From assembly GCA_027334565.1 (NCBI GenBank), contig DAHWUP010000002.1, positions 13,203 to 77,202 on the forward strand: 64,000 nt of DNA. The letters are read 5' to 3'. The translations under genes and the position numbers were made by a program. The stretch comes from Candidatus Levyibacteriota bacterium. Lineage in GTDB: Bacteria > Patescibacteriota > Microgenomatia > Levybacterales > UBA12049. This document shows positions 5,057-57,642 of this stretch, piece by piece (within the stretch, counting starts at the first letter, position 1; each line of letters opens with the position of its first letter). Below the pieces are notes generated by a model. The model did not search any database and was not told the origin of the DNA. It saw only the letters and a list, made by a program, of their open reading frames with translations.

Positions 5057-5086
5057 AAATAAATAAACAATTAAACGCTTAAAACA

Positions 5087-16150: not shown

Positions 16151-16152
16151 AT

Positions 16153-17713: not shown

Positions 17714-18600
17714 TACGGCTGAAACAGATTATAAGGAAAGAATTCGGCAGGAACTTCGGGGTATCCCTCATAAACAGTAATCTTTCGGGTTGTACTGTTA
17801 TTGGCTGTACCTTGAGATGTAATTATCCTGCCTTGCGCCGGTAATGTGGGAGTTCCAAAAACGCCGATCGCTGTTCCCATGTAGATCGGGTTTATTCTGA
17901 TAAGAAGCACATTAGGAGGCAATACTCCCGAGCCAGAGGTAAGGGTTGCTCTGTATTGCAGGGTTTGCCCACCGATATTTGTAGTGGCCTGTGAAGTTGA
18001 GGTGGCCGTACCGAAATGATTTACCGCTCTTCTTGCCGAACACGGATCGATCGTAACCCTCTTAAGACTTGGTGCTGCTTTAGTGCCGTAAATAATGGCA
18101 ACCTCAAGCGCTGCATTATTGCAAGGATTATTTTTATCGTTTCCCCAGAAAATATCAAACTCGGAGCCCGACCAGCTTGTACTAAATGCCGTGGCAGGAT
18201 CGGAAGAGTAGGTTGTGACCCAGACATCGATCGCATCATCTTTGGAAACCAGGTCTCCGCCGTTTATCAAAAAATTTTGTGTGGTATTCTGGGTACTTAC
18301 GGTCGTAGAATATGAGGTTGCATTTGTGGTACCGGTCGTATTAAATGTTCCGACGATCGCGGGCGCCCCGGGTGCGGTATCGTTTTTCAATGCCTGTTCG
18401 ACTCCTGCCTCCGCTGCGGCCAGTGCTTTCTGCGAATTTGCTTGGTTGGTAGTATTTTTAACGTTTACGACACTGCGCGTGGCAATCGACAGGCCTACCG
18501 TCAAAGCGACCACCATTATTAAAACTACTATAAGAAGAGCCTGTCCTCCCTGGCTTTTGAGCCTATTTGTAAAAGTCATACTCTTAATATAGAGTAGCAA
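17713..18600 (-). CDS. PilX-N-like pseudopilin / pilus assembly protein
   Basis: N-terminus KSQGGQALLIVVLIMVVALTVGLSIATRS...AEAG resembles the PilX_N family hydrophobic anchor. Thr/Asn/Ser-rich extracellular part. Confidence 0.5.
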   Translation of the reverse strand: MLLYIKSMTFTNRLKSQGGQALLIVVLIMVVALTVGLSIATRSVVNVKNTTNQANSQKALAAAEAGVEQALKNDTAPGAPAIVGTFNTTGTTNATSYSTTVSTQNTTQNFLINGGDLVSKDDAIDVWVTTYSSDPATAFSTSWSGSEFDIFWGNDKNNPCNNAALEVAIIYGTKAAPSLKRVTIDPCSARRAVNHFGTATSTSQATTNIGGQTLQYRATLTSGSGVLPPNVLLIRINPIYMGTAIGVFGTPTLPAQGRIITSQGTANNSTTRKITVYEGYPEVPAEFFPYNLFQP

Positions 18601-18631
18601 TAAATCTTACGGCTTGTCAACTTCCCGAAAC

Positions 18632-19246
18632 TTAATTACTGTTCCGCGGTTGCACGCTGGTTTCAAAATCCAAACTGGACTTTTGTTCGGCCAGCTGGGC
18701 AGGGTTTAAAGGATTGAATGTTTGGACGGTGAACGAAATCGTTACCAGCGGACTGACTCCCGTGCCTGAACCGTTACAGAGGATCTGGCAGTTGGTAACA
18801 TACAGTGAACTATCTACCAAAGATGCCCCGTTTGAAGCGATCGTATAGGGCGGTGAATCGGTTTGTCCGTTGCAGCTGTAAACGGTGGTGCCTCCGTCAA
18901 AAGATTGAACCCGGATATATTTGTAAACCGTTGTTGAAGTTGACGGACAATCGGTTATATACGTACTTCCGTTCGTACCGTTGACATCGCATGAATTATT
19001 TAAAATACCGGGGTTGTTATCGGTGCTTACACCGCAAAAGTTTTGTGCATATGCGATTGTTTTACTGATCTGAGAAAGCGCATAATTTCCGTTTTGACGG
19101 ATATTGTTGACGCTTGAAGCTTTGTTTATCCCGCGAAGCGTACCGGTAATTATGCCCAAAGCAACGCCTCCTACAATGGTTAATATCATCAATACAACCA
19201 AAAGTTCTATTAATGTAAAACCTTGATCATTTAATGTTTTTTTCAT
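18632..19246 (-). CDS. Type IV (pseudo)pilin, minor
   Basis: Class III signal: KKTLNDQ G|FTLIELLVVLMIL (Gly-1, Phe+1, Glu+5). Confidence 0.7.
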   Translation of the reverse strand: MKKTLNDQGFTLIELLVVLMILTIVGGVALGIITGTLRGINKASSVNNIRQNGNYALSQISKTIAYAQNFCGVSTDNNPGILNNSCDVNGTNGSTYITDCPSTSTTVYKYIRVQSFDGGTTVYSCNGQTDSPPYTIASNGASLVDSSLYVTNCQILCNGSGTGVSPLVTISFTVQTFNPLNPAQLAEQKSSLDFETSVQPRNSN

Positions 19247-19728
19247 GGGTTAGGCGGATTAGCTATTTGTGCAAAACAGGAATCTAAGGTCACGTTTTCA
19301 CAATATTTGTTGCTTCCGGTACATTTGGAATCAGGCCAGGAAACGGATACCGTCACCTTTTCACCGGAACCGCAGCTAGCGTCGGCGGTGTTAATCACAA
19401 CCGACCGGATAAAATTATTATTATTACTTGTGATATTCGGGGTACTACAACCCCCGGTCGGAGAACCAAGGTCGGTAGAATTTTCAGCCAGGCAATAAGT
19501 CCCGGATACATAAGCCGAAAAGGCGCTCCAGTTGGAATCGCTTTGTTGTCGTACAATATCTAAAGCCTGCTGGGCATATTGGGTTGCCAGATTCTGGGTT
19601 TTGGAATAATCCGCATTATTTACGGTTGTTAATACTACCAGGGCTATAGATCCGATAATAATTGCCGCAACTCCCAATGCCAGCATCGCTTCAACCAGTG
19701 ATTGTCCTTTATCATTTATAATCATCAT
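19243..19728 (-). CDS. Type IV (pseudo)pilin, minor
   Basis: Start re-set to MMIINDKGQSLVEAMLALGVAAIIIG (prepilin motif with Glu+5). The ORF-track 76-aa N-terminal extension would overlap the upstream pilin; ATGA overlap with its stop. Confidence 0.65.
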   Translation of the reverse strand: MMIINDKGQSLVEAMLALGVAAIIIGSIALVVLTTVNNADYSKTQNLATQYAQQALDIVRQQSDSNWSAFSAYVSGTYCLAENSTDLGSPTGGCSTPNITSNNNNFIRSVVINTADASCGSGEKVTVSVSWPDSKCTGSNKYCENVTLDSCFAQIANPPNP

Positions 19729-20213
19729 CGTACAGTGATCACTCCCGCTGAACTTACATTTACGGTTTTGGATAGGCCGTTTTCCGAAAAAACATAATTT
19801 CCGCTGCCGGATACATTTCCCGTCAATAACAGGAAAATAATATCGTCCCAACCGCCGGTAACTCCGGGGAAAACTACGGTTGTTCCGAAACTTTTGGTAA
19901 ATAAACCGTCCTGTACGGTTCCGCAATCGGCATAAAGAGTATACTTGGTTTTCCATACCCTGACGCGGTAATCCTGCAAGGGTTTACCGGCACAATTTGC
20001 GTCAGTTGGCACAACCTGAGAATATGCATTCGATTTGGCGGTATTTAGGGTATTGACAAAATCCGACAGATCCTGCTGAAAAGCCTGGCTTTTATTATAA
20101 TTTACGAATGCGCTGACACCTACCGCCGAAATTATCCCAATTAAAGCGATGACAACCAGAAGTTCGATCAGGGTAAAACCCTTTGCGGCGAGCAGTAAAC
20201 CGTTTCTATTCAT
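19725..20213 (-). CDS. Type IV (pseudo)pilin
   Basis: MNRNGLLLAAK G|FTLIELLVVIALIGII is a class III signal peptide. Confidence 0.7.
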   Translation of the reverse strand: MNRNGLLLAAKGFTLIELLVVIALIGIISAVGVSAFVNYNKSQAFQQDLSDFVNTLNTAKSNAYSQVVPTDANCAGKPLQDYRVRVWKTKYTLYADCGTVQDGLFTKSFGTTVVFPGVTGGWDDIIFLLLTGNVSGSGNYVFSENGLSKTVNVSSAGVITVR

Positions 20214-20219
20214 AAAATC

Positions 20220-20681
20220 TTAGGGATTGGTTACCGTGTATGTAATTCCCGTTCCTCCGGCCACTGAACAAGACGCACCTCCGGCTGCTTGGGGATCGTT
20301 AACATTTTCCAGGCAGGCGGAAAGCGTATAAGAAACAACAGGTGTACCGCCGGGAGTATAGATATATGAACCTCCTTTGGGGTCTGTAGGAATAATCGAC
20401 ATGTAAATGATCGAACAATCAGGACTGCCAAACTTACCGGAGCAATCGTTTAAAAGCGCGGGGTAACTTCCGTTGTCCGAACGATACATCTCCAATGCGG
20501 ACTGAATTCGCCTCAAATCGGACTTCCTTTGCGTATCCCTCGCTTTTTGTAATTGCCCGAGCGGATTGACAATCACTATCAGTGTTCCCGCCATAATCCC
20601 GAGTATCGCAATCACAACGGTAAGTTCAATCAGCGTAAAACCCGCATGAGGATATGTAAACCGCTTAATTGTTCTTATCAT
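20220..20681 (-). CDS. GspG/PulG-like pseudopilin (type II secretion / T4P pilin family)
   Basis: HAGFTLIELTVVIAILGIMAG...QKARDTQRKSDLRRIQSALEMY is typical of the GspG N-terminal helix. Confidence 0.75.
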   Translation of the reverse strand: MIRTIKRFTYPHAGFTLIELTVVIAILGIMAGTLIVIVNPLGQLQKARDTQRKSDLRRIQSALEMYRSDNGSYPALLNDCSGKFGSPDCSIIYMSIIPTDPKGGSYIYTPGGTPVVSYTLSACLENVNDPQAAGGASCSVAGGTGITYTVTNP

Positions 20682-20726
20682 ATATTAATAGCCTAGCATA
20701 AATTTGATACGCTTGTCTATCGATTG

Positions 20727-21521
20727 CTATAATCCAAAAATCTTAAAGAATAAATAATTGAGCCGGCTTTGAAAAAAAAGCGTAAGAAAAGATCCTGCAA
20801 CCAGAAAAGGTCCGAAGGGCAGTGCGCTTTGAAATTTCTTTTTTTTAAGGAAAATCAAAAACAGGGCGCCTATTGCTCCTAATATGAAGGCCAGGTAAAG
20901 CGCAATGAATATTCCGGGAAAACCAAAAAACAATCCCAAAACAAACGACAGTTTTACATCACCACCTCCCATACCTTCTTTTCTTGTAAACAAATAAAAA
21001 ATATAAGAGACTGCGACAAAAAACAGCAAGCAGCCTATACCGGAAAGCAAGTGATTTACTATCACCGAAAGCGGGTTAAAAGAAAGCCAAAGTAAAATTA
21101 AAACAATGTCGAATATTAATATCGAATCGGGAATTATGCCTTTTTTAAAATCGATAAAAAATATTAAGATAAAACTGGAAATCATGGCTAGCAGATAAAA
21201 AAAGTAAAACAAAAACCTTAAATTTATTAGCGTAAGGGGAGTAATGAATATAAAAACGGCTATTGCAAACAAAAAACCCGTTACCAACTCTATTAAGGGA
21301 TAAAATAAAGACAATTTAGTTTTGCAGTAATGACATTTACCTTTCAGATAAACATAGGAAAAAATAGGAATCAAATCATACCAGGCAAGAATGTGTTTGC
21401 AGGTCTCGCAATATGAGCGGCCTACAAAAACAGACTCATGACGGGGAAATCTGTTAATTACTACGCCTAAAAAGCTCCCGATAAATAGACCGAATAAAAA
21501 CGCAAGAAAGACGTACATCAT
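20727..21521 (-). CDS. pilD: Prepilin peptidase PilD (A24 family)
   Basis: Tetra-Cys Zn motif CETCKH...CHYCKTK and multiple TM helices. Embedded among pilin genes. Confidence 0.85.
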   Translation of the reverse strand: MMYVFLAFLFGLFIGSFLGVVINRFPRHESVFVGRSYCETCKHILAWYDLIPIFSYVYLKGKCHYCKTKLSLFYPLIELVTGFLFAIAVFIFITPLTLINLRFLFYFFYLLAMISSFILIFFIDFKKGIIPDSILIFDIVLILLWLSFNPLSVIVNHLLSGIGCLLFFVAVSYIFYLFTRKEGMGGGDVKLSFVLGLFFGFPGIFIALYLAFILGAIGALFLIFLKKKKFQSALPFGPFLVAGSFLTLFFQSRLNYLFFKIFGL

Positions 21522-21551
21522 TATATATATCTTATTATATAAAAACCGGAT

Positions 21552-22100
21552 TTAATAGAGGGTTATACCGGCCGCAGGGGCCGTTGTGGCTGAGGCGATA
21601 CATCCTACGCCCGCTTTTCCTTGCGTAGAATCGTAGACAAACACTGCAGTTTGGCCTGTTGTACATTTGGCTTTAGTGAACGACTGATTAGATTCCGCGT
21701 CGGTCCAGACCAGGAAATTGGAAGTCCCGTTCTCCGAATAACAGAAAGTTCCTTGTGCGGCGGTGCCGGCCATTGTACCTCCGCAATTTGAATTTTGGGT
21801 AGGTGCCGTAATCGTATTCTTGATATCCTGAGAGTAAACAAGCACATTTTGCCAACCGGTAGAGAAGTTTGCGCCTGCAGGAGCTGTGCTTAACAACCCG
21901 GATTGTGCCGTGTAATAAGCCTGCACCGCGTGCCCCAACTGAGCTACATCGGAAAGCCTTCCGGAGTCCCTACCTCTTGCCAACTGTTCCAAAGGATTGA
22001 TGGCAACCAAAACTACGGCTGCCAAAATACCCAAAACTGCGATTACAATTAAAAGCTCGATCAGGGTGAAGCCTTTTGAGGATTTATATAACTTCTTCAT
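21552..22100 (-). CDS. pilA: Type IV major pilin (PilA-like)
   Basis: MKKLYKSSK G|FTLIELLIVIAVLGILAAVV with Cys-containing C-terminal domain. First pilin after pilC. Start set at 22100 (ORF track 22139). Confidence 0.7.
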   Translation of the reverse strand: MKKLYKSSKGFTLIELLIVIAVLGILAAVVLVAINPLEQLARGRDSGRLSDVAQLGHAVQAYYTAQSGLLSTAPAGANFSTGWQNVLVYSQDIKNTITAPTQNSNCGGTMAGTAAQGTFCYSENGTSNFLVWTDAESNQSFTKAKCTTGQTAVFVYDSTQGKAGVGCIASATTAPAAGITLY

Positions 22101-22202
22101 GTATATATAATGATATACATACATTTTAAAGTCTGTCAAGAGTCAATTTAAGGCCAGATATTTGAACTTGATAAATTAAGTTTTGAAAATGCCTTTGATT
22201 TA

Positions 22203-23414
22203 TTATTGGTTTCCAACCGAATTGATGAGGCTATATATCGGAGTGATCACCGAAATCAACAGGAAGGCGACACCTGCTCCCAGAATGATCATAATGATGG
22301 GTTCAAGAGCGGTTGTTAAGGTCTTGACCATCTGATCCGCCTCGCTCTCATAGTATTCCGAAGCTTTCATCAGACCCTCGTCGATCTTACCGGTCTGTTC
22401 GCCAACCTCAACCAACTGTATCAGCATTGGGGGAAATAATGTATAGCTGGACATCGAATCACCTATTCCGACGCCCTTTTCGACCATTTTTGCTACATCG
22501 ATAATGGCGGATTTATATAGAACGTTTCCCGTCGTATCCGCCGTTTCAAGCAAAGCCTGAACTACCAATGTGCCGGTGCCGACCAGAAGGCTTAAAGTCC
22601 TCGTAAATTCTGCCAGAATCGAATTGGAAAATAGCTTTCCGAATATCGGCAATCTTAGCAGTGCGCTATCGTAGATGAACCTGCCGTCGGTCGTATTTAT
22701 CCATTTTCTGAACGCAAAAATAACCACTGCAATAATTGCCAATACGACAGGCCAAGCTGTTACGATGAATTTTGACACATCCAACACTATCTGCGTAGGC
22801 AAAGGGATAGACACATTCATAGACGTGTATAAATCACTTAGTTGCGGTATCACGAAAAAAGTCATGATCATCATCACTCCGAACATCATGATGATGACAA
22901 TCGCAGGATACATCAATGCCGATTTTATTGTTGACTTAAGTTGTGACTGCCTCTCCATGTTCTCGGAAAGCCTCAAAAGTACCTTATCCAACAGCCCTCC
23001 CTGCTCACCGGCTTTTATCACCGAAACATAAATGGGCGTAAACACTTTAGGGTGCTTTTCTACCGCCTGACCCAAAGTTTTACCCTCCTGAACGTCATTG
23101 ATTATAGAGGTAATTACTTCGACGAAAGCCTGGTTCTTAATTTGGGCCTTTAAAAGTTCCAACGATTTTACCACCGTCAGACCCGAGGAGAGCATCGAAG
23201 AAAGCTGACGGGTAAAGATGATCAAATCCCTTGAACCGACCTTTTGTGACAAGAACGGCAAGTCGGACCAGAATTTATTGTCGATGCGGTCGATTGAAAT
23301 CGGCATCAGCGCTTTTTGTCTTAAATATTCGGCCGCGTCATCAATCGATTCCGTATCCAATAATCCGCGGGAAACATTTCCGTTATTATCTGTCGCTTTG
23401 TACCTGACTCTCAT
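22203..23414 (-). CDS. pilC: Type IV pilus platform protein PilC (GspF family)
   Basis: Two GspF repeats and 3 TM segments. About 400 aa. Confidence 0.9.
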   Translation of the reverse strand: MRVRYKATDNNGNVSRGLLDTESIDDAAEYLRQKALMPISIDRIDNKFWSDLPFLSQKVGSRDLIIFTRQLSSMLSSGLTVVKSLELLKAQIKNQAFVEVITSIINDVQEGKTLGQAVEKHPKVFTPIYVSVIKAGEQGGLLDKVLLRLSENMERQSQLKSTIKSALMYPAIVIIMMFGVMMIMTFFVIPQLSDLYTSMNVSIPLPTQIVLDVSKFIVTAWPVVLAIIAVVIFAFRKWINTTDGRFIYDSALLRLPIFGKLFSNSILAEFTRTLSLLVGTGTLVVQALLETADTTGNVLYKSAIIDVAKMVEKGVGIGDSMSSYTLFPPMLIQLVEVGEQTGKIDEGLMKASEYYESEADQMVKTLTTALEPIIMIILGAGVAFLLISVITPIYSLINSVGNQ

Positions 23415-23424
23415 ATAAAGATTC

Positions 23425-24492
23425 TTATTCTATCAAGCGCATCAATTCCTCAGTTCGAAGAGCATAGGCTTTGGCGGTTTCGATACTAACCGCCCCGGAC
23501 ATAACCAGCTGTGATAAAGAATGCTCAAGCGAGATCATTCCCGCATCCTGAGAGGTCTGGATGATCGAATCGATTAAATGCGTTTTTCCTTCCCGGATGG
23601 TACTTGCAACAGCCGAAGTGCCGACCAAAACCTCCACTGCGGGTATCCTGCCTCCGTTGACCATCGGGATCAACCTTTCCGATACCACTCCTTTAAGAGT
23701 AGCAGCCAGCTGAACCCTGACTTGCGCCTGTTGGCTGGCCGGAAAAGCATCGATTATCCTGTCTACCGTTTGTGCGGCAGAATTGGTATGCAAGGTGGAG
23801 AAGACCAAATGACCTGTCTCGGCGATGGTTAGTGCCGACGCGATGGTTTCGGGGTCCCTCATCTCACCCACAGAAACAACATCGGGATCCTCCCGAAGCG
23901 CCGACCTTAAAGCCATATTCCATGAATGGGTATCCACATCCATTTCTCTTTGGGAAATGATGCTTTTACCAGGAGGATAAACATACTCGATCGGATCTTC
24001 GATGGTCAGAATATGATTCGCAGTTTCAAGGTTTATCTCGTTGAGCATGGAAGAAATGGTTGTGGATTTACCGTGACCCGACGGACCGGTTACCAAAATG
24101 AAGCCTTGTTTAAGTTGAGCGAATGCGTGGCAAATCTTGGGTAAGTGGAGTTCCTCGACCGTTTTAATTTTCGGCTGCAGATATCTGAACGCAACACTCA
24201 TCAAACCTCTCTGATAATAAATATTGGCCCTGAACCTTCCCAGATCGCCATAAGCGCCTCCGCCAAAACCGAAGGAAAAATCGATTTCCTTGTTATTTAT
24301 CAACAGCTCCTTTTGTTCCGGTTTTAAAATCCCCATGAGCATCATCTCGATGTCTTTGGCTGCAAGCTGATTGTAACTTGTCAGATACCTTAATTCTCCG
24401 TCGATCCTTATCGCCGGATAATTTCCCGGTAAAAGGTGTAAATCCGATGCATTATTTTTAATTGTTAAATCCAATAGTTCCTGTATCGACAT
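23425..24492 (-). CDS. pilT: Twitching-motility retraction ATPase PilT
   Basis: Walker A VTGPSGHGKSTT, Asp box, His box. About 355 aa, PilT-size without the GspE N-domain. Confidence 0.9.
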   Translation of the reverse strand: MSIQELLDLTIKNNASDLHLLPGNYPAIRIDGELRYLTSYNQLAAKDIEMMLMGILKPEQKELLINNKEIDFSFGFGGGAYGDLGRFRANIYYQRGLMSVAFRYLQPKIKTVEELHLPKICHAFAQLKQGFILVTGPSGHGKSTTISSMLNEINLETANHILTIEDPIEYVYPPGKSIISQREMDVDTHSWNMALRSALREDPDVVSVGEMRDPETIASALTIAETGHLVFSTLHTNSAAQTVDRIIDAFPASQQAQVRVQLAATLKGVVSERLIPMVNGGRIPAVEVLVGTSAVASTIREGKTHLIDSIIQTSQDAGMISLEHSLSQLVMSGAVSIETAKAYALRTEELMRLIE

Positions 24493-24495
24493 AGT

Positions 24496-26241
24496 TTATT
24501 CCTGGGCAACCCTTAATACTTCCTCGATGGTCGTGACCCCGGCCAACACCTTCAGATAACCGTCCTGTTTCATGGTTATCATACCTTCAAGTATCGCCTC
24601 TTTTTCTATTGTACCAGAATCGGCGTGTTGTAAAATCAGCGTCGCGATTCTTTCGTTTATCGGCAATGTCTCAAAAATACCGATTCTTCCGATATAACCC
24701 GATCCGCCGCATTCCTGGCAACCCTTTCCTTTATAAAACTTTATTTTCCCGATATTTGCCGGGAAGTATTTACCCAACACGTTCTTTATCTCCGTGACCA
24801 GCGGGGGAGGAGGCGTCAGTTCAACTTTACAATGTTGGCAAATCTTGCGCACGATCCTTTGTCCGAGTACAGCATTCATGGTGGATGCCAGCAAAAAAGT
24901 CTCCGCACCAAGATCGAGAAGCCGGGGAAGTGCTCCGGCAGCATTTGAGGTATGCAGGGTTGAAAACACCAAATGTCCGGTCAAAGCGGCTTGAATAGCA
25001 AGTTCTGTAGTTTCCGGGTCCCTGATTTCTCCGACCAGAATGATATTCGGGTCCTGCCTTAAGAAAGACCTTAAGCCTTCCGCAAAAGTAAGACCCACCG
25101 CAGGATTTATCTGCACCTGATTGACCCCCTGCATTTGATATTCAACCGGATCCTCAAGCGTTGAAATATTAACCCTGGTTGTATTCAATTTGTTCAAAAC
25201 GGAATAAAGGGTGGTCGTTTTACCGGAACCGGTCGGACCTACTACAATGATTATACCATGGGGCCTAAGCATTGCCGTTTCCAGATTGCGCAAAGAAGAA
25301 CCGTTTAACCCCAGTTCTTCAAGCGTAGGTACGCCGCCGGATTTTCTTAAAAGCCTCATCACGATCTTTTCACCAAAAGTTGTCGGCAAGACCGAGATCC
25401 TCAGGTCAACTTCCTTATCGTCAACCTTGAAATTGAATCTACCGTCCTGCGGGATACGGTGCTCGTCGATCTTCATCTCGGACAAAATCTTGATCCTGGA
25501 AATAACCGCTTCCTGAACGCTTTTGGGCAACGACAATCTGTCGTATAAGATTCCGTCTATGCGGTACCTTACCCTGACCCGGTCTTCCATCGGCTCGATA
25601 TGAATATCCGACGCTCTGCTGTTGACAGCGTACTCGAGTATGGTCGAAACGATTTTTGCTATCGGCGCCTCTTTGATTATCTGGGCGATTTGTTGGGTAT
25701 CGACCGTTTTAATTTTGGAGGTGGTCTCAGTTTCTTTCAGGGCTTCTCCCACTTCCCCCACCAATTCCTGTCGGTATTGCTGGTCAATAGCCCGTTGAAC
25801 CTGCGTTTTTGAAGCCGCAAAGGCTTTAATGGTCTGACCCGATCTTTCCTTGACAAAAGTGATCGCCTCAAGGTCGACCGGGTTGGACATGGCAATAGAA
25901 AGGATTTTTGACTTCTCGTCATACAAAAACGGGATCAGCGAAAATCTTTCCGCGACCGAACGCGGAACAAAACCCAGGGCTTGGGGGGAAAACGATTGGG
26001 TGTCAAGCGAAACGAAAGGTATGTCAAAGACCTTCGCTTTTGCCTGCGCCAGTTTTTCTTCGGGAACAATATTCGAATCCTCGACAATGCTTTCTTCGGT
26101 TGCGCCACTTGAAGCACTTTTTACCTTAATGTCGTCGTATTGTTGTTTGGTTATGAGCTTTTCCGAAAATAACACATCGGCAATGGTTTTGGCGTCGGAA
26201 AAGCCGTCGGCACCTGATGATAAAGTTATCGTATCGGGCAT
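24496..26241 (-). CDS. pilB: Type IV pilus assembly ATPase PilB (GspE family)
   Basis: N-terminal GSPII_E_N domain, Walker A VVGPTGSGKTTTLY, tetracysteine motif CQHC...CQEC. Confidence 0.9.
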   Translation of the reverse strand: MPDTITLSSGADGFSDAKTIADVLFSEKLITKQQYDDIKVKSASSGATEESIVEDSNIVPEEKLAQAKAKVFDIPFVSLDTQSFSPQALGFVPRSVAERFSLIPFLYDEKSKILSIAMSNPVDLEAITFVKERSGQTIKAFAASKTQVQRAIDQQYRQELVGEVGEALKETETTSKIKTVDTQQIAQIIKEAPIAKIVSTILEYAVNSRASDIHIEPMEDRVRVRYRIDGILYDRLSLPKSVQEAVISRIKILSEMKIDEHRIPQDGRFNFKVDDKEVDLRISVLPTTFGEKIVMRLLRKSGGVPTLEELGLNGSSLRNLETAMLRPHGIIIVVGPTGSGKTTTLYSVLNKLNTTRVNISTLEDPVEYQMQGVNQVQINPAVGLTFAEGLRSFLRQDPNIILVGEIRDPETTELAIQAALTGHLVFSTLHTSNAAGALPRLLDLGAETFLLASTMNAVLGQRIVRKICQHCKVELTPPPPLVTEIKNVLGKYFPANIGKIKFYKGKGCQECGGSGYIGRIGIFETLPINERIATLILQHADSGTIEKEAILEGMITMKQDGYLKVLAGVTTIEEVLRVAQE

Positions 26242-38998: not shown

Positions 38999-40975
<1,977 letters not shown>

Positions 40976-45103: not shown

Positions 45104-47572
45104 ATGGCCGATATCGGAAAACTACAATCAGCAGAAATTACCTCGGAAATGAAGCGGGCGTATTTGGATTACGCCATGTCTGTGATAGTTTCGAGGGCAC
45201 TGCCCGATGTCAGAGACGGGCTTAAACCGGTGCACCGAAGAATATTGTTCGCGATGCATGAGATGGGTTTGCCGCATTCCGCAAAGTATTCAAAATCCGC
45301 CAAGATCGTCGGAGAGGTGATGGGAAAATACCATCCCCACGGTGACGTACCGATTTATGACGCTCTGGTGCGCTTGGCCCAAGATTTTTCCATGCGCTAT
45401 CCGTTGGTCGACGGACAGGGAAACTTCGGCTCGATGGACGGTGACCCGCCGGCCGCAATGCGTTATACGGAAGCCCGAATGGCGGCTATTACCGCCGAAA
45501 TGCTTTTGGATATTGAAAAAGAAACGGTCGATTATCTCCCGAACTTCGATTCGACCCTTAAAGAACCGGTTTTCCTGCCAAGCCTGTTACCAAATCTTCT
45601 TTTGATGGGAAGCGAAGGAATAGCCGTCGGAATGGCCACCAAGATCCCGCCGCATAACTTGGGAGAAGTGGTCGAGGCAACCGATTATCTGATATCAAAA
45701 GCCAAGATAACCCCCGAGCCGTTCGATCTTACTTCCGACGTAACGGTTGAGGAACTGTTGGAATATATCAAAGGGCCGGATTTTCCGACAGCCGGCGCTA
45801 TTTACGACTGGGCGGAAATTAAAAATGTCTATACCACCGGCCGGGGCAGGATATTAATCAGGGGTAAAGCCGATATCGAAGATATCGGACAGGGAAAAAG
45901 CGCAATTATCATTACCGAGCTACCTTATCAGGTAAATAAAGCTCTGTTGGTTGCGCGCATCGCCGAACTGGCCAAAGAAAAGAAGATAGACGGTATTTCC
46001 GACCTTCGCGACGAGTCCGATCGTCACGGCATACGGGTGGTCGTCGAACTAAAAAGAGACGCAGCCCCGAAGAAGGTTCTGAATAACCTATTCAAATACA
46101 CTTCGTTACAGTCCAGCTTCCCGGCCAATATCGTCGCCTTGGTCGACGGCACTCCCCAAACATTGAACTTAAAAACCATTCTTGAGGAATTCGTCAAACA
46201 TCGATTCTTAGTCGTTAGACGAAGAAGTGAATTCGAACTAAGACAGGCCAAAGCCAGGTTGCATATTCTGGAAGGGTTAAAAATTGCGGTTGAGAACATC
46301 GACGCGGTCATAAGAACCATTAGGGAAAGCAAAACACAGGAGGACGCAAAGCAAAATCTGATGAAAAAGTTTAAATTGACCGACATTCAGGCAACGGCGA
46401 TATTGGACCTGCAACTTAGAAGACTGGCTGCCTTGGAAAGACAAAAAATTGAAGAGGAGTACCAGATGGTTAAAGAGATCATCGCTTACCTTGAAGACCT
46501 TCTGGCGCATCCGGCAAAAATCTTAACGGTTATCAAAAACGAGCTGGACAAACTAAAGGAAAAGTACGCGGACGACAGGCGCACTAAAGTCTACAAAAGC
46601 AAGGTAGGAGAATTTTCCGAAGAGGACCTGATAACAAACGAACCGACGGTGGTAACCTTAACCGACACGGGCTACATCAAAAGGCAGAGTCTGACCAGTT
46701 TTAAAACGCAGCAACGTGGGGGCAAAGGCGTCATCGGTATGACCACCAAGGAAGAAGACGCGATAGCCGATATTAAGTATCTTGAAACACACGATAACCT
46801 GCTTTTTTTCACCAATAAAGGAAAGGTTTACCAGACCAAGGCCTATGAAATCAACGAATCCTCAAGGACCAGTAAGGGTACGGCGATAGTCAATCTTTTG
46901 AACATCGAGGCAGGGGAAAAGGTGGAAAGTTTTCTAAATTACCGTAAAGACTCCCAGGCAAAATTCGTTTTTTTAACCACCAAAAACGGCACTGTAAAGA
47001 AATCCGCCTTGAGTGAATTTGAAAACATCCGAAAATCCGGAATTCTGGCTATCAAGCTTGATAAAAACGACGAACTGGTCTGGAGCAAATTAACGACCGG
47101 AGACGAAGATATCCTTCTGGTTACGCGCAACGGTAAATCCATCAGATTTTCGGAAAAATCGGTCAGACCGATGGGAAGAAATACCATGGGAATTAGGGGA
47201 ATCATGATCGGAAAGGACGACCGGGTGATCCAAATGGACGTGGTCCAAAAAGGAAGCAAACAAGACGTACTTACCATCATGGAAAACGGCCTGGGCAAAA
47301 AAACAACCATTGATCAGTTCAAAACACAGGGCCGCGGCGGACAGGGAATAAAGGTCGCTGAGGTAACGCAGAAAACCGGAAAAATCGCATCCTCACAAAT
47401 AGTTCCGTCCGGCGCAAAAGAAGTAATTATCACTTCGCAAAAAGGCCAAATCGTAAAGCTTGAGGTCGGATCGATCCCCAGACTTTCCCGCGCAACCCAA
47501 GGCGTTATTTTGATGCGTTTCTCCGACACCTCTGACCATGTTGCCTCTGCGACCTACATCGAAGAAGGTTAA
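45104..47572 (+). CDS. gyrA: DNA gyrase subunit A
   Basis: Active-site region GKYHPHGD...Y, and GyrA-box QQRGGKGV in the C-terminal beta-pinwheel (GyrA rather than ParC). Confidence 0.95.
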
Positions 47573-50678: not shown

Positions 50679-51467
50679 GTGAGTAAATTCTACAAGCGGT
50701 TTGAAGCACAAATTGTAACCATAGTTTTAATTCTCATCGGCGTATTTTTATACATCAAGGTCGCCGGTCCGATCCCGTTTTTCATCAATAGCGTTCAAAC
50801 GACCAAAACGGATCTGTTTTCCTCCGACGGTGAGGGAACGGTTACAGCCGCTCCGGATACAGCGGAAATAAACCTCGGCGTTACCCAAACGGGAGCAACC
50901 GTTTCGGATGCGCAATCAAAGGCAAATTCTACGGCGAATAAAATAATAGCCGGTTTAAAAAAATTGGGGATTTTGGAGAAAGACGTCAAAACCACCAATT
51001 ATTCGATTAGTCCAAATTACCAATCGGCGGACATAAACGGACCTTTTCTTCCTACAAGAGGCGGGGGCATCACCGGTTATACGGTCACTCAAAACCTGCA
51101 GATTAAGGTAACTCCCATTGATAAGGTAAATAATGTTATCGATTCGGCCACCGCAGCAGGCGCAAACCTGGTAGGCGGAGTGAATTTCACTTTTAGTGAT
51201 AATCTGCAAAACAATTTGGAAAATGAAGCGATGCAACAGGCGGTTAATAACGCCAAGCAAAGGGCTCAAAATCTTGCGAGCGCTTCCGGAATAAATTTGG
51301 GAAGGATAGTGAACGTGGTCCAAAGCTCGAACAACCCAAGACCTATAACCTTTGGGGGCCCCGCGGTCGCTAATTCTACGGTCCAGGAGGCCGCGCCACC
51401 AACCGATGTCACACCGGGACAGAATACCGTTACCGTTGATGTAGTCCTTTACTACGAAACTTATTAG
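50679..51467 (+). CDS. SIMPL/DUF541 family periplasmic protein
   Basis: Signal anchor plus DUF541 pattern (GTVTAAPDTAEINLGV...ANKIIAGLKKLGI...NYSISP). GTG start preceded by TTGACA-N17-TAGGAT. Confidence 0.7.
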   Translation: MSKFYKRFEAQIVTIVLILIGVFLYIKVAGPIPFFINSVQTTKTDLFSSDGEGTVTAAPDTAEINLGVTQTGATVSDAQSKANSTANKIIAGLKKLGILEKDVKTTNYSISPNYQSADINGPFLPTRGGGITGYTVTQNLQIKVTPIDKVNNVIDSATAAGANLVGGVNFTFSDNLQNNLENEAMQQAVNNAKQRAQNLASASGINLGRIVNVVQSSNNPRPITFGGPAVANSTVQEAAPPTDVTPGQNTVTVDVVLYYETY

Positions 51468-52363
51468 CCTCCTGCATTCTGATTTTGAGAAGAGGACATT
51501 TTTTCCATCTTAAGTATTTCCTGTAAGCGTCCTTTTGCCAAATATTCATCGCCGGTATATATCGATAGCGAGTTCAACATCGACTCGTAGTCACTTAAAC
51601 CCCTATCACGATAAAGAACATAATTATCACTAATCATTTTGGCCGCAGCGGCGATCATTTCCCAGTCATCCTGATGACGTTGTGGCATACCTGCCAAGTC
51701 GGAAAACGGTTCGGAAGCTTTCTTGATGTATTCGGGGGTCCAGGTATCGATATTTATCTGTGCGATTCCGTAAATCGGATAGTTTTCCTTGCTGAAAGCC
51801 TTTTTACTTCTTGAGGCGTGGCTTTCCTGCTCAATGGTAACCATCAACACTTCCCAGGGAATGCCATAATACTGTGCGATCGGTTCAATGATAGGATAAT
51901 AGATCTTAACGTCTTTTAAGAGCTGTTCATTGGTTACCGCATGGAGAATTTGGGGAGCACTGTCTATCGCGGCAACGATTTCGCCCAAACGGACATCCGA
52001 GTTCAATTTGATTAGTTTTTCCGTGAATTGATTTGATGGTATTGATGTTGCAGGAGAACTTTGAGGTGATAAAGGTTTAAATTCATCCATAAATCCAGGC
52101 CCGGGACTATTGTCAAAAATTACATTCGAAGCCTCCCGGCTGTCATGGTTGAACCCCTGCATCCCGTCCGAAAGTACCGATGGAGTAGACGACTGATCAT
52201 CCAATACCTTCACAATAGGCACCCCGGCGGCGTCAATGATTTGGCTTTCAGGGCCTGCAACCAGCACGCCCGCCACCAGCAAGGCCGCTGCCTTGGAAGC
52301 TGCTCTTCTCCTTTTCAATCTGGTTTTTTCGTCTGTTTTGTTTATTGACTTATCTCTTTCCAT
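51464..52363 (-). CDS. Lysozyme-like / lytic transglycosylase (SLT)-like domain protein, membrane anchored
   Basis: N-terminal TM anchor. C-terminal region EQESHASRS...YGIAQI resembles the SLT/GEWL catalytic Glu-Ser and GLMQ-like motifs. Moderate support. Confidence 0.5.
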   Translation of the reverse strand: MERDKSINKTDEKTRLKRRRAASKAAALLVAGVLVAGPESQIIDAAGVPIVKVLDDQSSTPSVLSDGMQGFNHDSREASNVIFDNSPGPGFMDEFKPLSPQSSPATSIPSNQFTEKLIKLNSDVRLGEIVAAIDSAPQILHAVTNEQLLKDVKIYYPIIEPIAQYYGIPWEVLMVTIEQESHASRSKKAFSKENYPIYGIAQINIDTWTPEYIKKASEPFSDLAGMPQRHQDDWEMIAAAAKMISDNYVLYRDRGLSDYESMLNSLSIYTGDEYLAKGRLQEILKMEKMSSSQNQNAGG

Positions 52364-52597: not shown

Positions 52598-53530
52598 TTA
52601 TTTATTTCCGCTGTGGAAATTGTGATGGACATCGCGAAGCTGTTTATTGGTGATATGTGTGTAGATCTGGGTGGTGGCAATATTTTTATGTCCGAGCATC
52701 TCCTGTACCGAACGAAGATCCGCACCGTTGGTCAAAAGGTCGGTCGCGAAACTATGCCTTAGCGTATGGACCGTGGCATCAACCGGAATTCGGGCCAACC
52801 GTACATATTTTTTGACGATCCGTTCGACACTCCTCGGCGTTAATCTCATTTTTTCCCCTCCGTCATCTTCGTTAACCGCACCCGAATACCTTATAAACAA
52901 CGGTTTAAATACGTCCTCGCGTTTGTCGAGGTACCGTTTTACCCAATCGGCGGCTCTGTCGGAAATAAATACGATCCTGGCTCTTCCGCCTTTTCCAATC
53001 ACTCCGAACTCGCGTCTGACTAAGTTTATCTGGTCTTGGTTAAGTTTTATCAACTCGGATACCCTTAACCCGGTCGAGAACAACAACTCCAGAATGGCCC
53101 TGTCCCTTAAACCTTCCTCTTTGGAGGTATCACAAACCGTTACCAGACGGTCTATCTGATCCTTTTCCAAAAACTTTAACGACCTTGATTCGGTTTTGGG
53201 TAAATCAATTTTTGAGGGCTCCAGAGTTTTAAAATCGTTTTTGATCAAAAAGCGTAAGAATGACCTTAGGGCTATCACGTAATAGTTCTGTGTCACTCTT
53301 TTTATCGGCTGATTTTTTTCGTCGGTTTTGTTGGCCAAAAAAACGCGATATTTTCGCACGGTGGCAAGATCCAATTCCTCGATATTTTTTTGGGGAAGGG
53401 TAGAGGTAAGCCACCGGTTGAAAACTTCAAGATAATGCCTGTAATCCCGCAGGGTCAACTTGCTGCAGTTTTTTTCAATCTCAAGATATTCCAAGAACTG
53501 ATCGATTAGTCCTGACAATTCTTCATTCAT
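52598..53530 (-). CDS. Tyrosine recombinase, XerC/XerD family
   Basis: C-terminal HTLRHSFATDLL...GH...Y catalytic RHRHY motif and an N-terminal SAM-like core-binding domain. Start set at MNEELSG (53530). Confidence 0.85.
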   Translation of the reverse strand: MNEELSGLIDQFLEYLEIEKNCSKLTLRDYRHYLEVFNRWLTSTLPQKNIEELDLATVRKYRVFLANKTDEKNQPIKRVTQNYYVIALRSFLRFLIKNDFKTLEPSKIDLPKTESRSLKFLEKDQIDRLVTVCDTSKEEGLRDRAILELLFSTGLRVSELIKLNQDQINLVRREFGVIGKGGRARIVFISDRAADWVKRYLDKREDVFKPLFIRYSGAVNEDDGGEKMRLTPRSVERIVKKYVRLARIPVDATVHTLRHSFATDLLTNGADLRSVQEMLGHKNIATTQIYTHITNKQLRDVHHNFHSGNK

Positions 53531-53560
53531 TGTGCGACGTAATAATATTATGCGACGTAT
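53531..53560. repeat. dif-like recombination site candidate / direct repeat doublet (tgcgacgta x2 around palindrome ataatattat), immediately 5' of the recombinase gene
   Basis: tgtgcgacgtaataatattatgcgacgtat. GTGCG and TTATG are in the same register as E. coli dif (GGTGCGCATAATGTATATTATGTTAAAT). Confidence 0.45.
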
Positions 53561-53615
53561 AGATTTGCCTGTCAAGGTTGACAGAAAGCCCAAAAATCAG
53601 GCATACTGAAATATA

Positions 53616-55142
53616 ATGCGGGATAAATATATCGAATTAATCATCGATTACATCAAAGAACGTCCGGACTACGAACATGCTTTGGACGAGATCAAAAAGG
53701 AGGTTCTGGCACTTGGAGCGACGGAGAACGAATTCGACGAAGCTATGAACCGGATTACCGGCTACGCACCTTCCGATAAGTCACGGGGAGCGGCAGATTT
53801 CATCAGCCAAAACACCGTCCAGCCGGAATTTAAATCCTCAAACCGGGAAAAACTGGTTGAAAAAATTACGGATTTTGTCGATAAGGCGAAAATAATCAGA
53901 CCGACACGGAAATCCGTCGCGGTACTGGCTGTGATATTAATTCTGGTGGTAGGACTAACACAGCTTTTAAAATTCAATAATAATCCTCCAAGCGCGGCCG
54001 TAACCGAAAACCTACCTCAAGTTAGCAGAAGCGAACAGACTCTGGTCCCGGTCGTTTACGCCAGTTCCTTACCGGTCGATGCCGGCAAGATCTTTTCGGT
54101 TCCGTCTCCTTCAAAAATTCAGTTGACCGTAACCGGAAAACCCAAAAAAACTATTTTCGGTTTTTTCCCGTATTGGATGATGGGTGAAGCCGATAATATC
54201 ACCCTGAATACGCTTACCGATGTCAGCATTTTCGGACTTGAAACCGACCAAAACGGAAATATCATGACCGGGGGAAACGACGAAGCGGGCGGCGGCTGGC
54301 AGATGTGGACAGACCCTCTTTTGGACAGATTCATCTCGAGGGCACGGTCATACGGCATTAAAATCAGCCTGACTATCAAGTCATTCAATAATGGCAATAT
54401 TGCAGCTGTTGTAACCTCCGACAACGCCCAAAAAAACCTCATCGCGAATATCCTATATCTTGTGAATTCCAAAAATCTTGACGGGGTCAATATCGATTTT
54501 GAGTACGTCGGAAATCCAAGCCAGACGGTAACGGACGGTTTTACGAGATTTATCACCAACCTGAATACGGAACTTAAGCGGCAAAATCCCAATTCGATAC
54601 TTACTATCGATACTTATCTTGCGTCAGGTTCCGATGACGGACTCTTTGACCTGCCGGCACTGGCTCTTCAAAGTGACGCTTTTATCATCATGGGTTATGA
54701 TATGCATACACCAAAGGGCGATCCCGGACCCGTTTCGGCAATGGGCGGCGATTCCAATATCATCGGCTACGTACAAAATTATCTGGAAAAGGTCAGTCCG
54801 TCAAAGATTATTTTGGCCGTACCATATTACGGTTATGATTGGCCGCAAAACGGAACCAATGACCCCAGCAATGTAAAGATACTGCCATACGCTCTAATCG
54901 CCGACCAGAGCAAGAACCTACAGCTAAATTGGGATACTACCTCCGAAACCCCTTCATTTACCTACAAGGACAGCTCAGGAAACCCCAGAATCGTATATTT
55001 TGACAACGTCAGATCTTTGGGAATTAAATACGATTTTATCAACGAGAAAAACCTAAAAGGCGTCGGAATCTGGGCACTTGGCTACGACGGCAACAATCAG
55101 GACCTTCAGAAACTGTTAATTGATAAATTTATTAACCAATGA
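53616..55142 (+). CDS. Glycoside hydrolase family 18 domain protein (chitinase-like), membrane anchored
   Basis: TM anchor plus GH18 TIM-barrel motifs (GFFPYW..., LDGVNIDFEYVG = DGxDxDxE variant with Asn at D2, and YYGYDW). Confidence 0.7.
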   Translation: MRDKYIELIIDYIKERPDYEHALDEIKKEVLALGATENEFDEAMNRITGYAPSDKSRGAADFISQNTVQPEFKSSNREKLVEKITDFVDKAKIIRPTRKSVAVLAVILILVVGLTQLLKFNNNPPSAAVTENLPQVSRSEQTLVPVVYASSLPVDAGKIFSVPSPSKIQLTVTGKPKKTIFGFFPYWMMGEADNITLNTLTDVSIFGLETDQNGNIMTGGNDEAGGGWQMWTDPLLDRFISRARSYGIKISLTIKSFNNGNIAAVVTSDNAQKNLIANILYLVNSKNLDGVNIDFEYVGNPSQTVTDGFTRFITNLNTELKRQNPNSILTIDTYLASGSDDGLFDLPALALQSDAFIIMGYDMHTPKGDPGPVSAMGGDSNIIGYVQNYLEKVSPSKIILAVPYYGYDWPQNGTNDPSNVKILPYALIADQSKNLQLNWDTTSETPSFTYKDSSGNPRIVYFDNVRSLGIKYDFINEKNLKGVGIWALGYDGNNQDLQKLLIDKFINQ

Positions 55143-55187
55143 ACAACAATTGACAATAAACAAACGACAATGCTAAGCTAATAAATT

Positions 55188-55859
55188 ATGAGTGACAGAG
55201 ATCAAGAAAATATGCGCCCATCACGGTTGGACACCTTAACCGAGAATTCGGCCGATACCAGAAGATCGGCAGGGTCAGGAATGTTGACCAGAAGAAGAGC
55301 GCTGGCAGGAGCTATTTTAGTGCCAGCCATCGCTTTAGCCGCTACATCCGGACCGGAGTTCGTAAATTCTATCACGAAACCTTTTTCACCGGAAAATTCC
55401 CGCGCCAATTACGTGACGACCGTCGACCAGGATGCCATTATAAGACTTGGGCTTGATGCCAGTAACCACTACGGAGCACTTATTTTCCCCGGCGGTCTTG
55501 ACCAGAACTTGATGGCTGTCTCCGAACAAGGCGGAATCGAAGGAAACCAGATTAAAAGCATAGAGGGAAAACCAGTATTGCCGGGAGCGACGGCCTTTGA
55601 GGTTAAAAACCCCGGTGCCAACGATGAAGGCCAGATGCCGCTTATCGTTACCTTTGAAGACAGCGGCAAAGTCCTGCCTGCCGTTCTGGAGCCGTTATTT
55701 CCCACCAACGGTGAATTGATCCAGCAAGGCAACATTAGAACCGTTAACGGAAGTGTAGAAAGAAATGCACAGGGTCAAAGAACCGAAACCGGAACCGGTT
55801 TGACCGTCGATCAGATCAGTTTCATAACCAGTACCGCATCTCCCTCCGAAACCCATTAA
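55188..55859 (+). CDS. Hypothetical secreted protein with Tat-like signal (TRRRALAGAILVPAIALAA)
   Basis: S/T-R-R-x-[AFL] motif followed by a hydrophobic h-region and AxA. Confidence 0.4.
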   Translation: MSDRDQENMRPSRLDTLTENSADTRRSAGSGMLTRRRALAGAILVPAIALAATSGPEFVNSITKPFSPENSRANYVTTVDQDAIIRLGLDASNHYGALIFPGGLDQNLMAVSEQGGIEGNQIKSIEGKPVLPGATAFEVKNPGANDEGQMPLIVTFEDSGKVLPAVLEPLFPTNGELIQQGNIRTVNGSVERNAQGQRTETGTGLTVDQISFITSTASPSETH

Positions 55860-56094
55860 AACAAACAATTATCTAACATTTTAACGACCAATTTGGAAAT
55901 TAATGAATTTAGCTTCAAATAGCCTCAAAAATATAAATTATAAATCCCATAGTAGGGGAGTGACAAAAAATCTCTATACCAACTTGAAAAATGGTGTAAT
56001 TAACTAAGCCGGAGTAGAAAGTTTAAGAAATAACAAATATATGAACAAAAAATAGTCAGATTTAAGGTCCTTCCCCCAAGCTTTGAAGCTGGCT

Positions 56095-56126
56095 GGCGTC
56101 GTAAAAGTATTATTGTGCGACGTAAT
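56095..56126. repeat. Second copy of recombinase-adjacent repeat (shares 15-mer attgtgcgacgtaat with 53529-53545)
   Basis: ggcgtcgtaaaagtattattgtgcgacgtaat. The left arm and start of the spacer are identical to the site at 53531; the right arm diverges. Confidence 0.45.
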
Positions 56127-56802
56127 CAATTTCTCTTTCCTGCTGCCATAAGGCAACCAAAAATCCGTAGTCATAAGCGTTGCGCCTTAGGGGAAAGAAG
56201 ACTTAATGCCTGTCTGAAAGCCCGTTACTCTTTTAAACGGTTAAATCAAATGTTTTATTTTATTATTTACCTTAGCGTACCTTTTAAGCAACCCCTACCC
56301 CCGGGATCGGATACTTGTGCCATGTTTAGACTGCCAATACAATCTAATCTCACGAATTTAGCCTCAAAAACGTATATTTTAGCAACCACATTTTCCCGGA
56401 GTATCGAGACCATTCGATCAGATGGCATTCGAGTTTTTTTCGTATAAGTCACAAATATTTATGTCTTCGGTAATTAAACAGGAGAGCATTACTTCCTCCA
56501 TCCGTGAAAAGTCGGCCAAAAAACCCGTGAAAACACACGTAAGTTTTCCACATTGAAGATAAATATATCCTATAATTGTTAATTTATGTCTATATCAAAC
56601 TATATCACTATTTTCTACTTCAAACTGTATCAACCCCTGACTTTATCCGCTACTCCACTTCCCTGTTACAACGATGCCAAGAATAATTTTTCAGGATAAA
56701 CAACAATTTATTAAGATAAATTGTACCGGCATTTATTGGTATTTGAGGCCAAACTATAGATGATCTTATCCAATAATGCCGCGCTTCCCCAGAGCCAGTG
56801 CG

Positions 56803-57642
56803 CTAAACCCAGTTGGTGAACAAAATTAAAAAAATAAAAGAAATTACGGTCAGCCAAAAATACTCAAGCAACACACTCCTAAACAATCGCTTCTCAAACC
56901 AAGCCTGGGTAACCCCGGTAAAAACATAAAAGGTTGAGGTCAGAAATAATGCGGAAACCGTAGGTGAACTTGGACCAAACCATAAAAATAAGGCCACCTC
57001 CAAAAGGCAAGTACTTAGTCCCAAGATCCAGAAGACGTTCGCATGAATTCTTCTATCAAGAGTGTAAACCCAAATAGCTTGCATGACCATCAAAAAAGTG
57101 TATACAAAAATTAATCCTAAAGTTATAAAAACATTGATATGAAAGGAAAAAACAACGTTGGAAATAAAGAAGAACGACAATAGCGACAAAACAAAAGACA
57201 CGGTACGCGCGCTGGACAAAAGCTGTATAGTCCGAATGGCAGAAACCGTAAAAATGTTCTGACTTAAGAAAATCGAATAAAGGCCCAACGCATACAAACT
57301 GGTCATCCCTACCCTGGTAATAAATCTTGCCGGAACCAATAAATAAAACAGGCCGAAACTAAGGGTGTACATAAAAGGTAGAATAAAAACCTGTGGCGTA
57401 AAATTACCCTTCAGATCGGATCGTAAAGAAAAGAATAAAAGTATATCGGTCAAAAACGCCAGGCCTATTACGGTATAAATACCCGACCTTCCCAAGAGAT
57501 ATTCGGCAACGAATAGACCTAAAGACAATAACAATACCGAGAAAATAAACCTTTGTCTTTTACTGATTAGATTTTTGCCGATAAAATTTTTGACTCTTTT
57601 TTTAGAATTACCGACACGTCTGATATTTTTGAAAGTAACCAT
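56803..57642 (-). CDS. Hypothetical polytopic membrane protein
   Basis: About 8 TM helices. Start set at internal ATG 57642 abutting the yebC stop; ORF-track start 57738 would overlap yebC by 95 nt. Confidence 0.45.
   Translation of the reverse strand: MVTFKNIRRVGNSKKRVKNFIGKNLISKRQRFIFSVLLLSLGLFVAEYLLGRSGIYTVIGLAFLTDILLFFSLRSDLKGNFTPQVFILPFMYTLSFGLFYLLVPARFITRVGMTSLYALGLYSIFLSQNIFTVSAIRTIQLLSSARTVSFVLSLLSFFFISNVVFSFHINVFITLGLIFVYTFLMVMQAIWVYTLDRRIHANVFWILGLSTCLLEVALFLWFGPSSPTVSALFLTSTFYVFTGVTQAWFEKRLFRSVLLEYFWLTVISFIFLILFTNWV

Follow-up and report, generated by a model that had tools for sequence, protein, structure and literature searches.

A probable 24-bp dif-type site linked to an Xer-type tyrosine recombinase gene in Microgenomates

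Introduction

The XerS/difSL system of streptococci and lactococci uses a single recombinase and has dif next to the recombinase gene. Archaeal XerA (Pyrococcus, Thermoplasma, and Sulfolobus) works without FtsK, and the dif site of Sulfolobus is located outside the fork-fusion zones. For the Candidate Phyla Radiation, no description of dif or of any Xer target was found in the literature searched. The sequence analyzed here (referred to as the window) was a 64-kb stretch from Candidatus Levyibacteriota bacterium (assembly GCA_027334565.1, contig DAHWUP010000002.1, positions 13,203 to 77,202). The source was a tiny-genome groundwater bacterium of the Levybacteria (Microgenomates). The window carried a tyrosine recombinase gene, here designated xer, together with a 24-bp core site and two promoter half-sites. 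In this locus, the single Xer-type tyrosine recombinase of Microgenomates probably had its cognate recombination module, composed of a dif-type site plus the promoter half-sites, and the enzyme-plus-site pair looked real and undescribed. Documented below are the anatomy and conservation of the site, its linkage to xer, its single copy per locus, its presence on phages, and the overlap of its half-sites with the xer promoter. A whole superphylum of uncultured bacteria would thereby gain an exactly delimited site of 24 bp, the recombinase belonging to it, and a circuit that is likely autoregulatory.

Compared to XerS/difSL, the locus likewise had one Xer and an asymmetric site linked to the recombinase gene, but its protein was not XerS, its site sequence was unrelated, it showed no GC-skew switch, and it harbored extra promoter half-sites. 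Compared to archaeal XerA/dif, it shared the single recombinase, with matches to the XerA model and XerA structures, and its lack of a skew switch paralleled Sulfolobus dif, but it came from a bacterial lineage, had arms like the bacterial XerC arm, and encoded a protein scoring below the equivalog cut-off. It resembled classical XerC/XerD–dif in five respects: an 11-6-11-type core, the arm sequence TCGCAyAA matching the inner XerC arm, the single copy per locus, exploitation by phages, and XerD as the best family and structure match; it differed from it in having two XerC-like arms, only 14 of 28 positions in common with Escherichia coli dif, no second xer in the window, and no skew switch. 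Integrative mobile elements exploiting Xer (IMEX), such as CTX-phi and the gonococcal genetic island (GGI), had their counterparts in site-bearing phages without a recombinase, a Zot-encoding inovirus-like element, and a junction in contig L151 (see below), but most carriers here were tailed phages, and an element with a site at each end was not recovered. As in ColE1 cer and pSC101 psi, the Xer core lay amid a few hundred base pairs of conserved protein-binding-type motifs and near DnaA-box DNA; unlike cer and psi, it was chromosomal, and the motifs were found on both sides of the core and were unrelated to ArgR, PepA, and ArcA sites.

The xer gene and its product

The xer gene (52598..53530, minus strand; ATG at 53530, the complement of 53528-53530) encoded a 310-aa XerD/XerA-like tyrosine recombinase, in which the Pfam search recognized the domains Phage_integrase (151 bits) and SAM_1 (SAM-like). 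Among the NCBIfam models, XerD (257 bits) scored higher than XerC (250 bits) and XerA (218.5 bits, against a cut-off of 220), all of these scores being below the respective equivalog cut-offs. The nearest solved structures were XerD 1a0p (1e-39) and XerA 4a8e (1e-36), XerA 5hxy being matched as well, and all six catalytic residues (R, K, H-x-x-R, H, and Y) aligned to those of E. coli XerD 1a0p. An Xer-type recombinase had already been proposed in a preliminary description of the window, made from the letters and translated reading frames, and the family scores and catalytic residues confirmed this. The protein did not belong to XerS (131 bits against the NF003462 cut-off of 267) or to XerH (weak structure match, 6.5e-11), and it reached only 116 and 66 bits with the integron-integrase models (cut-offs 265 and 435). 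An integron was rejected on two grounds: these models scored far under cut-off, and repeated sites between cargo genes were not found.

No second xer was seen within the window. Homologues of the protein at 59–89% identity were spread over Microgenomates. One related locus (L061) had two tandem Xer paralogues (1954-2859 and 4486-5388; 36% and 63% identical to the window protein, respectively) and no recognizable core site in range.

The full core site and its conservation

The full core site (56098..56121, minus strand) read GTCGCACAA-TAATAC-TTTTACGAC on the xer strand and displayed a 9-6-9 palindromic layout, i.e., inverted arms around a 6-bp central region, with an arm symmetry of 8/11; weak conservation extended to 56095-56124, adding 1–3 flanking bases, and the whole had the two-arm organization of inverted arms of about 11 bp around a centre of 6–8 bp. 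Both arms resembled the XerC-type arm of classical dif (TCGCAyAA), which implied one protein. Two Xer monomers would bind the inverted arms and exchange strands in the 6-bp centre, and the 24-bp site would be the dif equivalent of the clade.

The sequence comparison was applied to 80 loci from distinct species (Xer 59–84% identical) and to a wider set of about 180 Microgenomates loci (Xer 44–89% identical; 59–89% among genome loci). The strict pattern was found in 65 of 83 sequences (82 fetched loci plus the window) and three more had single-base variants, while the rest had too little flank; the site was present in every locus with the DUF5656 gene in range. Arm positions carried about 1.8 of 2 bits and the 24 bp were nearly invariant, variation being concentrated in the 6-bp spacer and one Y/R position per arm. 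The spacer was TAATAC in 52 of 63 chromosomal sites, and eight other spacers occurred.

The left/right asymmetry of the core and its orientation towards xer were constant, and the core lay 0.25–5.4 kb upstream of xer in the genome loci. The order DUF5656, site, xer was fixed within the syntenic arrangement TPR–YebC–DUF5656–gap–site–variable interval–xer–SIMPL. In the window, the gene that invariably precedes the site, encoding a DUF5656 membrane protein, was located at 56803..57642 (minus strand). When metagenome contigs were scanned independently, using nothing but the DNA pattern, at least 120 stretches matched, and the 120 listed were all in the same context and had one site each; among these, DUF5656 was found upstream in 85/85 with enough flank, and xer was found downstream in the same orientation in 65/70. 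Across about 300 loci, the copy number was one site per locus, and each contig among the matches listed, including contigs of 0.5–0.9 Mb, had one stretch. A second full site, degenerate ones included, was found neither by position weight matrix in 63 loci nor by pattern in 300 loci. Searching the literature for the site sequence brought up unrelated primers only.

Many of the records had titles pointing to other lineages: "uncultured Gammaproteobacteria bacterium" in L014, L015, L017, L019, L021-L023, and others, and "Bathyarchaeia archaeon" in one. With their Levybacteria-type synteny and Xer proteins 76–81% identical to that of the window, these were probably mislabelled public records of metagenome-assembled genomes.

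Phages and other elements carrying the core

The core was also searched for in the viral contigs of IMG/VR. No viral contig matched when the chromosomal spacer was fixed in the pattern; with the spacer left free (GTCGYACAA-N6-TTTTRCGAC), at least 120 matched, versus 13 for the reversed control pattern; 120 of the matches (L205-L324) were listed, and about 9 kb of each contig was inspected. Among the matches listed, 111 sites were non-identical and had many spacers (TATATC, TATACA, TATGTA, TAATCA, and others); TATATC, TATACC, and TAATAG were common to phages and chromosomes. The sites were intergenic in 107 of the 120 contigs listed, and their flanks were unconserved, the core alone being common. 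Neighbouring terS, terL, and portal genes marked the carriers as genuine phages. A tyrosine recombinase was encoded within the inspected region of only 1–2 of the 120 contigs listed, and no close homologue of the window Xer was found in the viral contigs. As in IMEX, nearly all of the listed phage contigs had a dif-like site and lacked a recombinase of their own in the inspected region. L259 (6.3 kb) and L300 represented a small Zot-encoding inovirus-like element with spacer TATATC, an AAA_15/AbiEii-like ATPase, and no integrase.

Contig L151 (Ga0070741_10047756; site at 5054-5077) displayed a chromosomal gap-type left flank, then the site, and then phage genes, the phage side being an early-gene module of HNH endonuclease, exonuclease, and MazG. 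This was the arrangement that integration at the site would produce, and L151 is a candidate for such a junction; no relative of its element was found as a free phage. The presence of the core on phages, together with the L151 junction, gave the strongest support for the 24-mer as a recombination target of a host enzyme. The 24-bp site would accordingly serve also as attachment or resolution site for phages that have the same arms and no recombinase. Such carriage suggests that tailed phages, like inoviruses, exploit host Xer, and the site on more than 100 phage contigs without a recombinase may allow phages to be linked to hosts by spacer matching.

Two further observations were made on the phage copies: in several contigs, the site lay about 0.5 kb upstream of the terminase genes, and in a subset, ACCCCTGT(T) repeats occurred within 400 bp of the site at 17-fold enrichment.

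Promoter half-sites beside xer

The repeat TGCGACGTA had exactly three copies in the window (53533, 53551, and 56116, all on the plus strand), against an expectation of 0.22, and 0 of 100 shuffles reached three. The preliminary description had reported a 15-mer shared between the xer start and a distal position, and this held: identical copies of ATTGTGCGACGTAAT occupied 53529-53543 and 56112-56126, and 53547-53561 matched it at 80%. The repeat unit was GTCGYANAA(T) on the xer strand, and the two xer-adjacent copies (GTCGCAYAAT) were tandem direct half-sites 18 bp apart with no inverted arm. Proximal half-site 1 (GTCGCACAAT; 53529..53538, minus strand) overlapped the xer ATG and had the same sequence as the left arm of the full core, in agreement with the earlier observation that the repeat abuts the start codon. 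Proximal half-site 2 (GTCGCATAAT; 53547..53556, minus strand) ended in CATAAT, which forms the -10 box for xer; the promoter was near-consensus in the promoter scan: TTGACA(53575)-17-CATAAT(53547), with 11/12 matches.

Of 77 relatives, 55 had a forward half-site in the 150 bp preceding xer, versus about one expected and two in reverse orientation, and 30 of these 55 had a TTGACA-like -35 box 17–18 bp upstream. The half-sites were kept in relatives whatever the content of the interval between the full site and xer, empty intervals included. A perfect palindrome, CTGTCAAGGTTGACAG (53569..53584), was formed in the window by the back-to-back -35 boxes of the divergent promoters of xer and the neighbouring gene for a glycoside hydrolase of family 18 (GH18), and the arrangement TGTCAA-N2-6-TTGACA recurred in relatives. 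Both genes would have very short leaders with no obvious Shine-Dalgarno sequence. GTCGYANAAT as a general promoter motif was rejected, since it matched at only six positions of the 64 kb and three of these were within genes.

The repeated motif was very probably the Xer binding sequence. Xer bound at the promoter half-sites, i.e., over the -10 box and the start codon, would repress its own transcription, and autoregulation of xer through these half-sites is most likely what the overlap reflects, as we infer from the promoter geometry.

Alternatively, the motif might be an operator bound by some ordinary transcription factor, such as YebC or a regulator from another locus, which would control xer and transcripts of the conserved non-coding region. 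Such an operator would agree with the half-site over the xer -10 box, with the palindromic full site, and with the invariable position of yebC two genes upstream. It was nevertheless judged quite unlikely, because (i) one full site in each genome region, strictly asymmetric and 24 bp in footprint, does not resemble the operator of a regulon; (ii) the variation was concentrated in the central 6 bp; (iii) over 100 unrelated phages had the naked core, with neither conservation of its flanks nor a target gene close by; and (iv) the L151 phage DNA was joined exactly at the site.

These results altered the assignment of sites made in the preliminary description, in which the xer-adjacent sequence was taken as the true dif and the distal copy as a hybrid. 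The linkage of a dif-type core to xer stood, with the roles reversed: the complete site was the distal one, where the supposed degenerate gcgtcgtaa turned out to be the second, inverted arm of the 9-6-9 site at 56098-56121, while the sequence next to xer consisted of two direct half-sites on the -10 box and start codon. The likeness to E. coli dif was modest, the proximal sequence sharing 16/28 positions with it and the distal site 14/28, compared with 7.4 +/- 2.3 for random 28-mers of the window.

The interval between the site and xer

The interval of the window contained two variable cargo genes on the plus strand, namely the GH18 gene (53616..55142; N-terminal membrane anchor; Pfam GH18 at 115 bits) and a gene for a 223-aa protein with a twin-arginine-like signal (RRRALAG N-terminus) and no Pfam family (55188..55859). 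The earlier naming of a GH18 hydrolase and a twin-arginine translocation (Tat)-signal protein was thus borne out for the former, and for the latter only as to its N-terminus. GH18 adjoined xer in few relatives (L010, L030, L039, L048, and L130), and a homologue of the 223-aa protein was found in L007 only. Across relatives, the interval had 0–8 open reading frames (ORFs), and 109 ORFs fell into 66 protein clusters, including trehalase (12 loci), GH18 (4), transaldolase, TreT-like glycosyltransferase, histidine kinase, GreA, and racemase; no replication, integrase, or phage-structural genes were among them. In distant Microgenomates, the site lay 250–1000 bp upstream of xer with no ORF between. 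Loci without a site within 6 kb (L013, L048, and L049) had no phage-protein matches next to xer.

It had been proposed that this 2.6-kb GH18/Tat segment was an IMEX at dif, flanked by a true dif beside xer and a hybrid dif 2.6 kb off, and excising as a circle. The 15-mer common to both segment ends would suit such an element, variants without the segment were indeed found in relatives (other genes or none in the interval), and elements exploiting the core occurred elsewhere, among the phage contigs. Five observations spoke against the proposal and left it very improbable: (i) the xer side consisted of promoter-embedded direct half-sites with no inverted arm, kept even with an empty interval; (ii) a second full site was present in none of about 300 loci; (iii) the cargo had no replication or phage genes; (iv) GH18 occurred at the same position in several lineages at 42–74% identity, suggesting vertical descent with losses; and (v) the GC skew at third codon positions (GC3 skew) of the GH18 and Tat-signal genes followed the local strand bias. 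With two full sites, mobile gene content, and foreign composition all lacking, the segment was rejected as an IMEX. Next to the site, the interval forms a plastic spacer, which distant Microgenomates keep free of genes and Levybacteria fill variably, and the GH18 and Tat-signal genes in it are ordinary accessory genes.

GC skew and the role of the site

The total GC skew changed sign near 50 kb in the window, following gene orientation. The GC3 skew in plus-strand sense was negative for nearly all window genes whatever their orientation, which placed the whole window on one replication arm, and plus- and minus-strand genes had opposite coding-sense GC3 skews, showing the bias to be strand-specific. 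A terminus called from the total GC skew was therefore rejected, the strand-separated GC3 skew having no switch, and the skew inversion for which the preliminary description suggested a check was not seen at this locus.

Several points weigh against a recombination module with a dif equivalent. The xer-sense GC3 skew was +0.167 +/- 0.013 left of the site and +0.131 +/- 0.011 right of it (about 180 loci), and its sign was equal on both sides in 91–96% of these loci and over the 64-kb window, so the site was not at a skew switch. To our knowledge, every characterised bacterial dif sits at a skew switch. The similarity of the core to E. coli and Bacillus subtilis dif was only 14–15 of 28, and none of about 180 chromosomal loci had an integrated element with a site at both ends. 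Xer as the binding protein and recombination at the site are what we infer, and outside the scanned loci and contigs there may be another Xer, another copy of the site, or a dif of the classical type. As to the skew, related Microgenomates were reported to be without any skew switch (PMC7143001), a caveat to using the switch as criterion.

The site may alternatively be mainly an attachment site (attB) for phages or other elements, with Xer being a domesticated integrase and dimer resolution taking place elsewhere or being absent. Its position off a skew switch, its occurrence on many phages, the L151 junction, and the variable region adjoining it would accord with this reading, but the about 180 chromosomal loci had no integrated element between two sites, and the 24 bp were kept across lineages whose Xer proteins were 44–89% identical. 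Such conservation across diverged Xer lineages argues for a housekeeping role parasitised by elements, as in classical dif/IMEX, and the attB reading was considered unlikely. The recombination module remained the probable one, and chromosome dimer resolution by the 24-bp site would be its housekeeping function.

Conserved non-coding DNA around the site

Conserved motifs were located on both sides of the core. A block downstream of the site (55905..55971, minus strand) had TCCCCTACTATGGG and GAGGCTA/GAAGCTAAA motifs, and a second copy of the TTTTTGAGGCTAAATTC motif lay on the other side (56354..56381, minus strand), both belonging to repeat families D6 and D12. GA[AG]GCTAA was enriched 50–70 fold at -300..-150 and +150..+300 from the site (about 180 loci). 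The GAATTTAGCYTCAAAAA direct repeats at 55905-55942 and 56354-56381 flanked the core about 440 bp apart. In L013, L022, L023, L028, and L031, the GA[AG]GCTAA motif was directly upstream of the xer ATG.

A conserved non-coding array (56503..56631, minus strand) was composed of GATACAGT and TGATATAGTTTGATATAG repeats at 56631-56590, a DnaA-box-like TGTGGAAAA at 56552-56544, and two TTTTCACG motifs at 56533-56526 and 56510-56503, all on the minus strand. Its position in about 180 related loci was 120–850 bp upstream of the site, and GATATAGTTT 10-mer repeats recurred in the array of relatives. One perfect DnaA box, TGTGGATAA, was found in 119 of 183 loci (111 within 700 bp of the site) in fixed orientation, and the DnaA-box density within 700 bp of the site was 60-fold that over the rest of the loci; two boxes with 7–8/9 matches accompanied the perfect box in the array, and two TTTTCACR motifs were present in 103/150 loci. 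There was no clear AT-rich peak in the gap, the richest stretch being 72% AT at +50..+100. The module order of the gap differed between lineages, with motif orientation fixed. The gap modules were not seen at phage copies of the core, and the chromosomal flank motifs were rejected as general Xer accessory sites, showing no enrichment near the phage copies.

The non-coding gap of 350–1500 bp with its strand-specific conserved blocks, and the purine and pyrimidine tracts flanking the site in Levybacteria, would also be expected if the 24-mer were a loop or helix of an unrecognised structured RNA between DUF5656 and xer. This reading was extremely improbable: there was no Rfam match at the gathering threshold or at E <= 10 and no tRNA or tmRNA was found; the minimum free energy z-score was 0.14; RNAalifold recovered the palindrome only; and matched and mismatched flank duplexes were alike (p = 0.17). 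Moreover, pairing covariation was absent at the variable arm position, the combinations at pos5/pos20 being as under independence with the non-pairing C/A commonest; the order of gap modules differed between lineages; and the phage copies shared the core only.

Kadnikov et al. (PMC7143001) found monotonic cumulative GC skew in complete genomes of several Microgenomates and proposed adjacent origin and terminus, or unidirectional theta replication. The array together with a dif-type site and without a skew switch fits that proposal, but the box count was small and no dnaA lay nearby: no DnaA signature was present in the window or in any locus examined, and the array had neither the skew switch nor the dnaA adjacency by which oriC is recognized. 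The origin-like array as oriC beside the Xer site, with one-directional copying in the xer sense and the site at the terminus, is a possibility that we regard as doubtful; origin and terminus side by side would explain the monotonic skew (PMC7143001), the lack of a GC3 switch, and a dif-type site next to DnaA boxes. With the site off a skew switch and beside a DnaA-box array, in a clade reported to have one-directional skew, the question of chromosome replication and termination becomes testable at one locus.

Other features of the window

No tRNA or Rfam-recognised RNA was found in the window. Two unrelated proteins without a Pfam family flanked xer/GH18 (51464-52363 and 55188-55859, the latter being the 223-aa protein), both having arginine-rich, Tat-like leaders. 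A type IV pilus cluster (PilM, prepilin peptidase, PilC-like T2SSF, and two T2SSE ATPases) and gyrB/gyrA were located at 15350-26241, 39005-40975, and 45104-47572.

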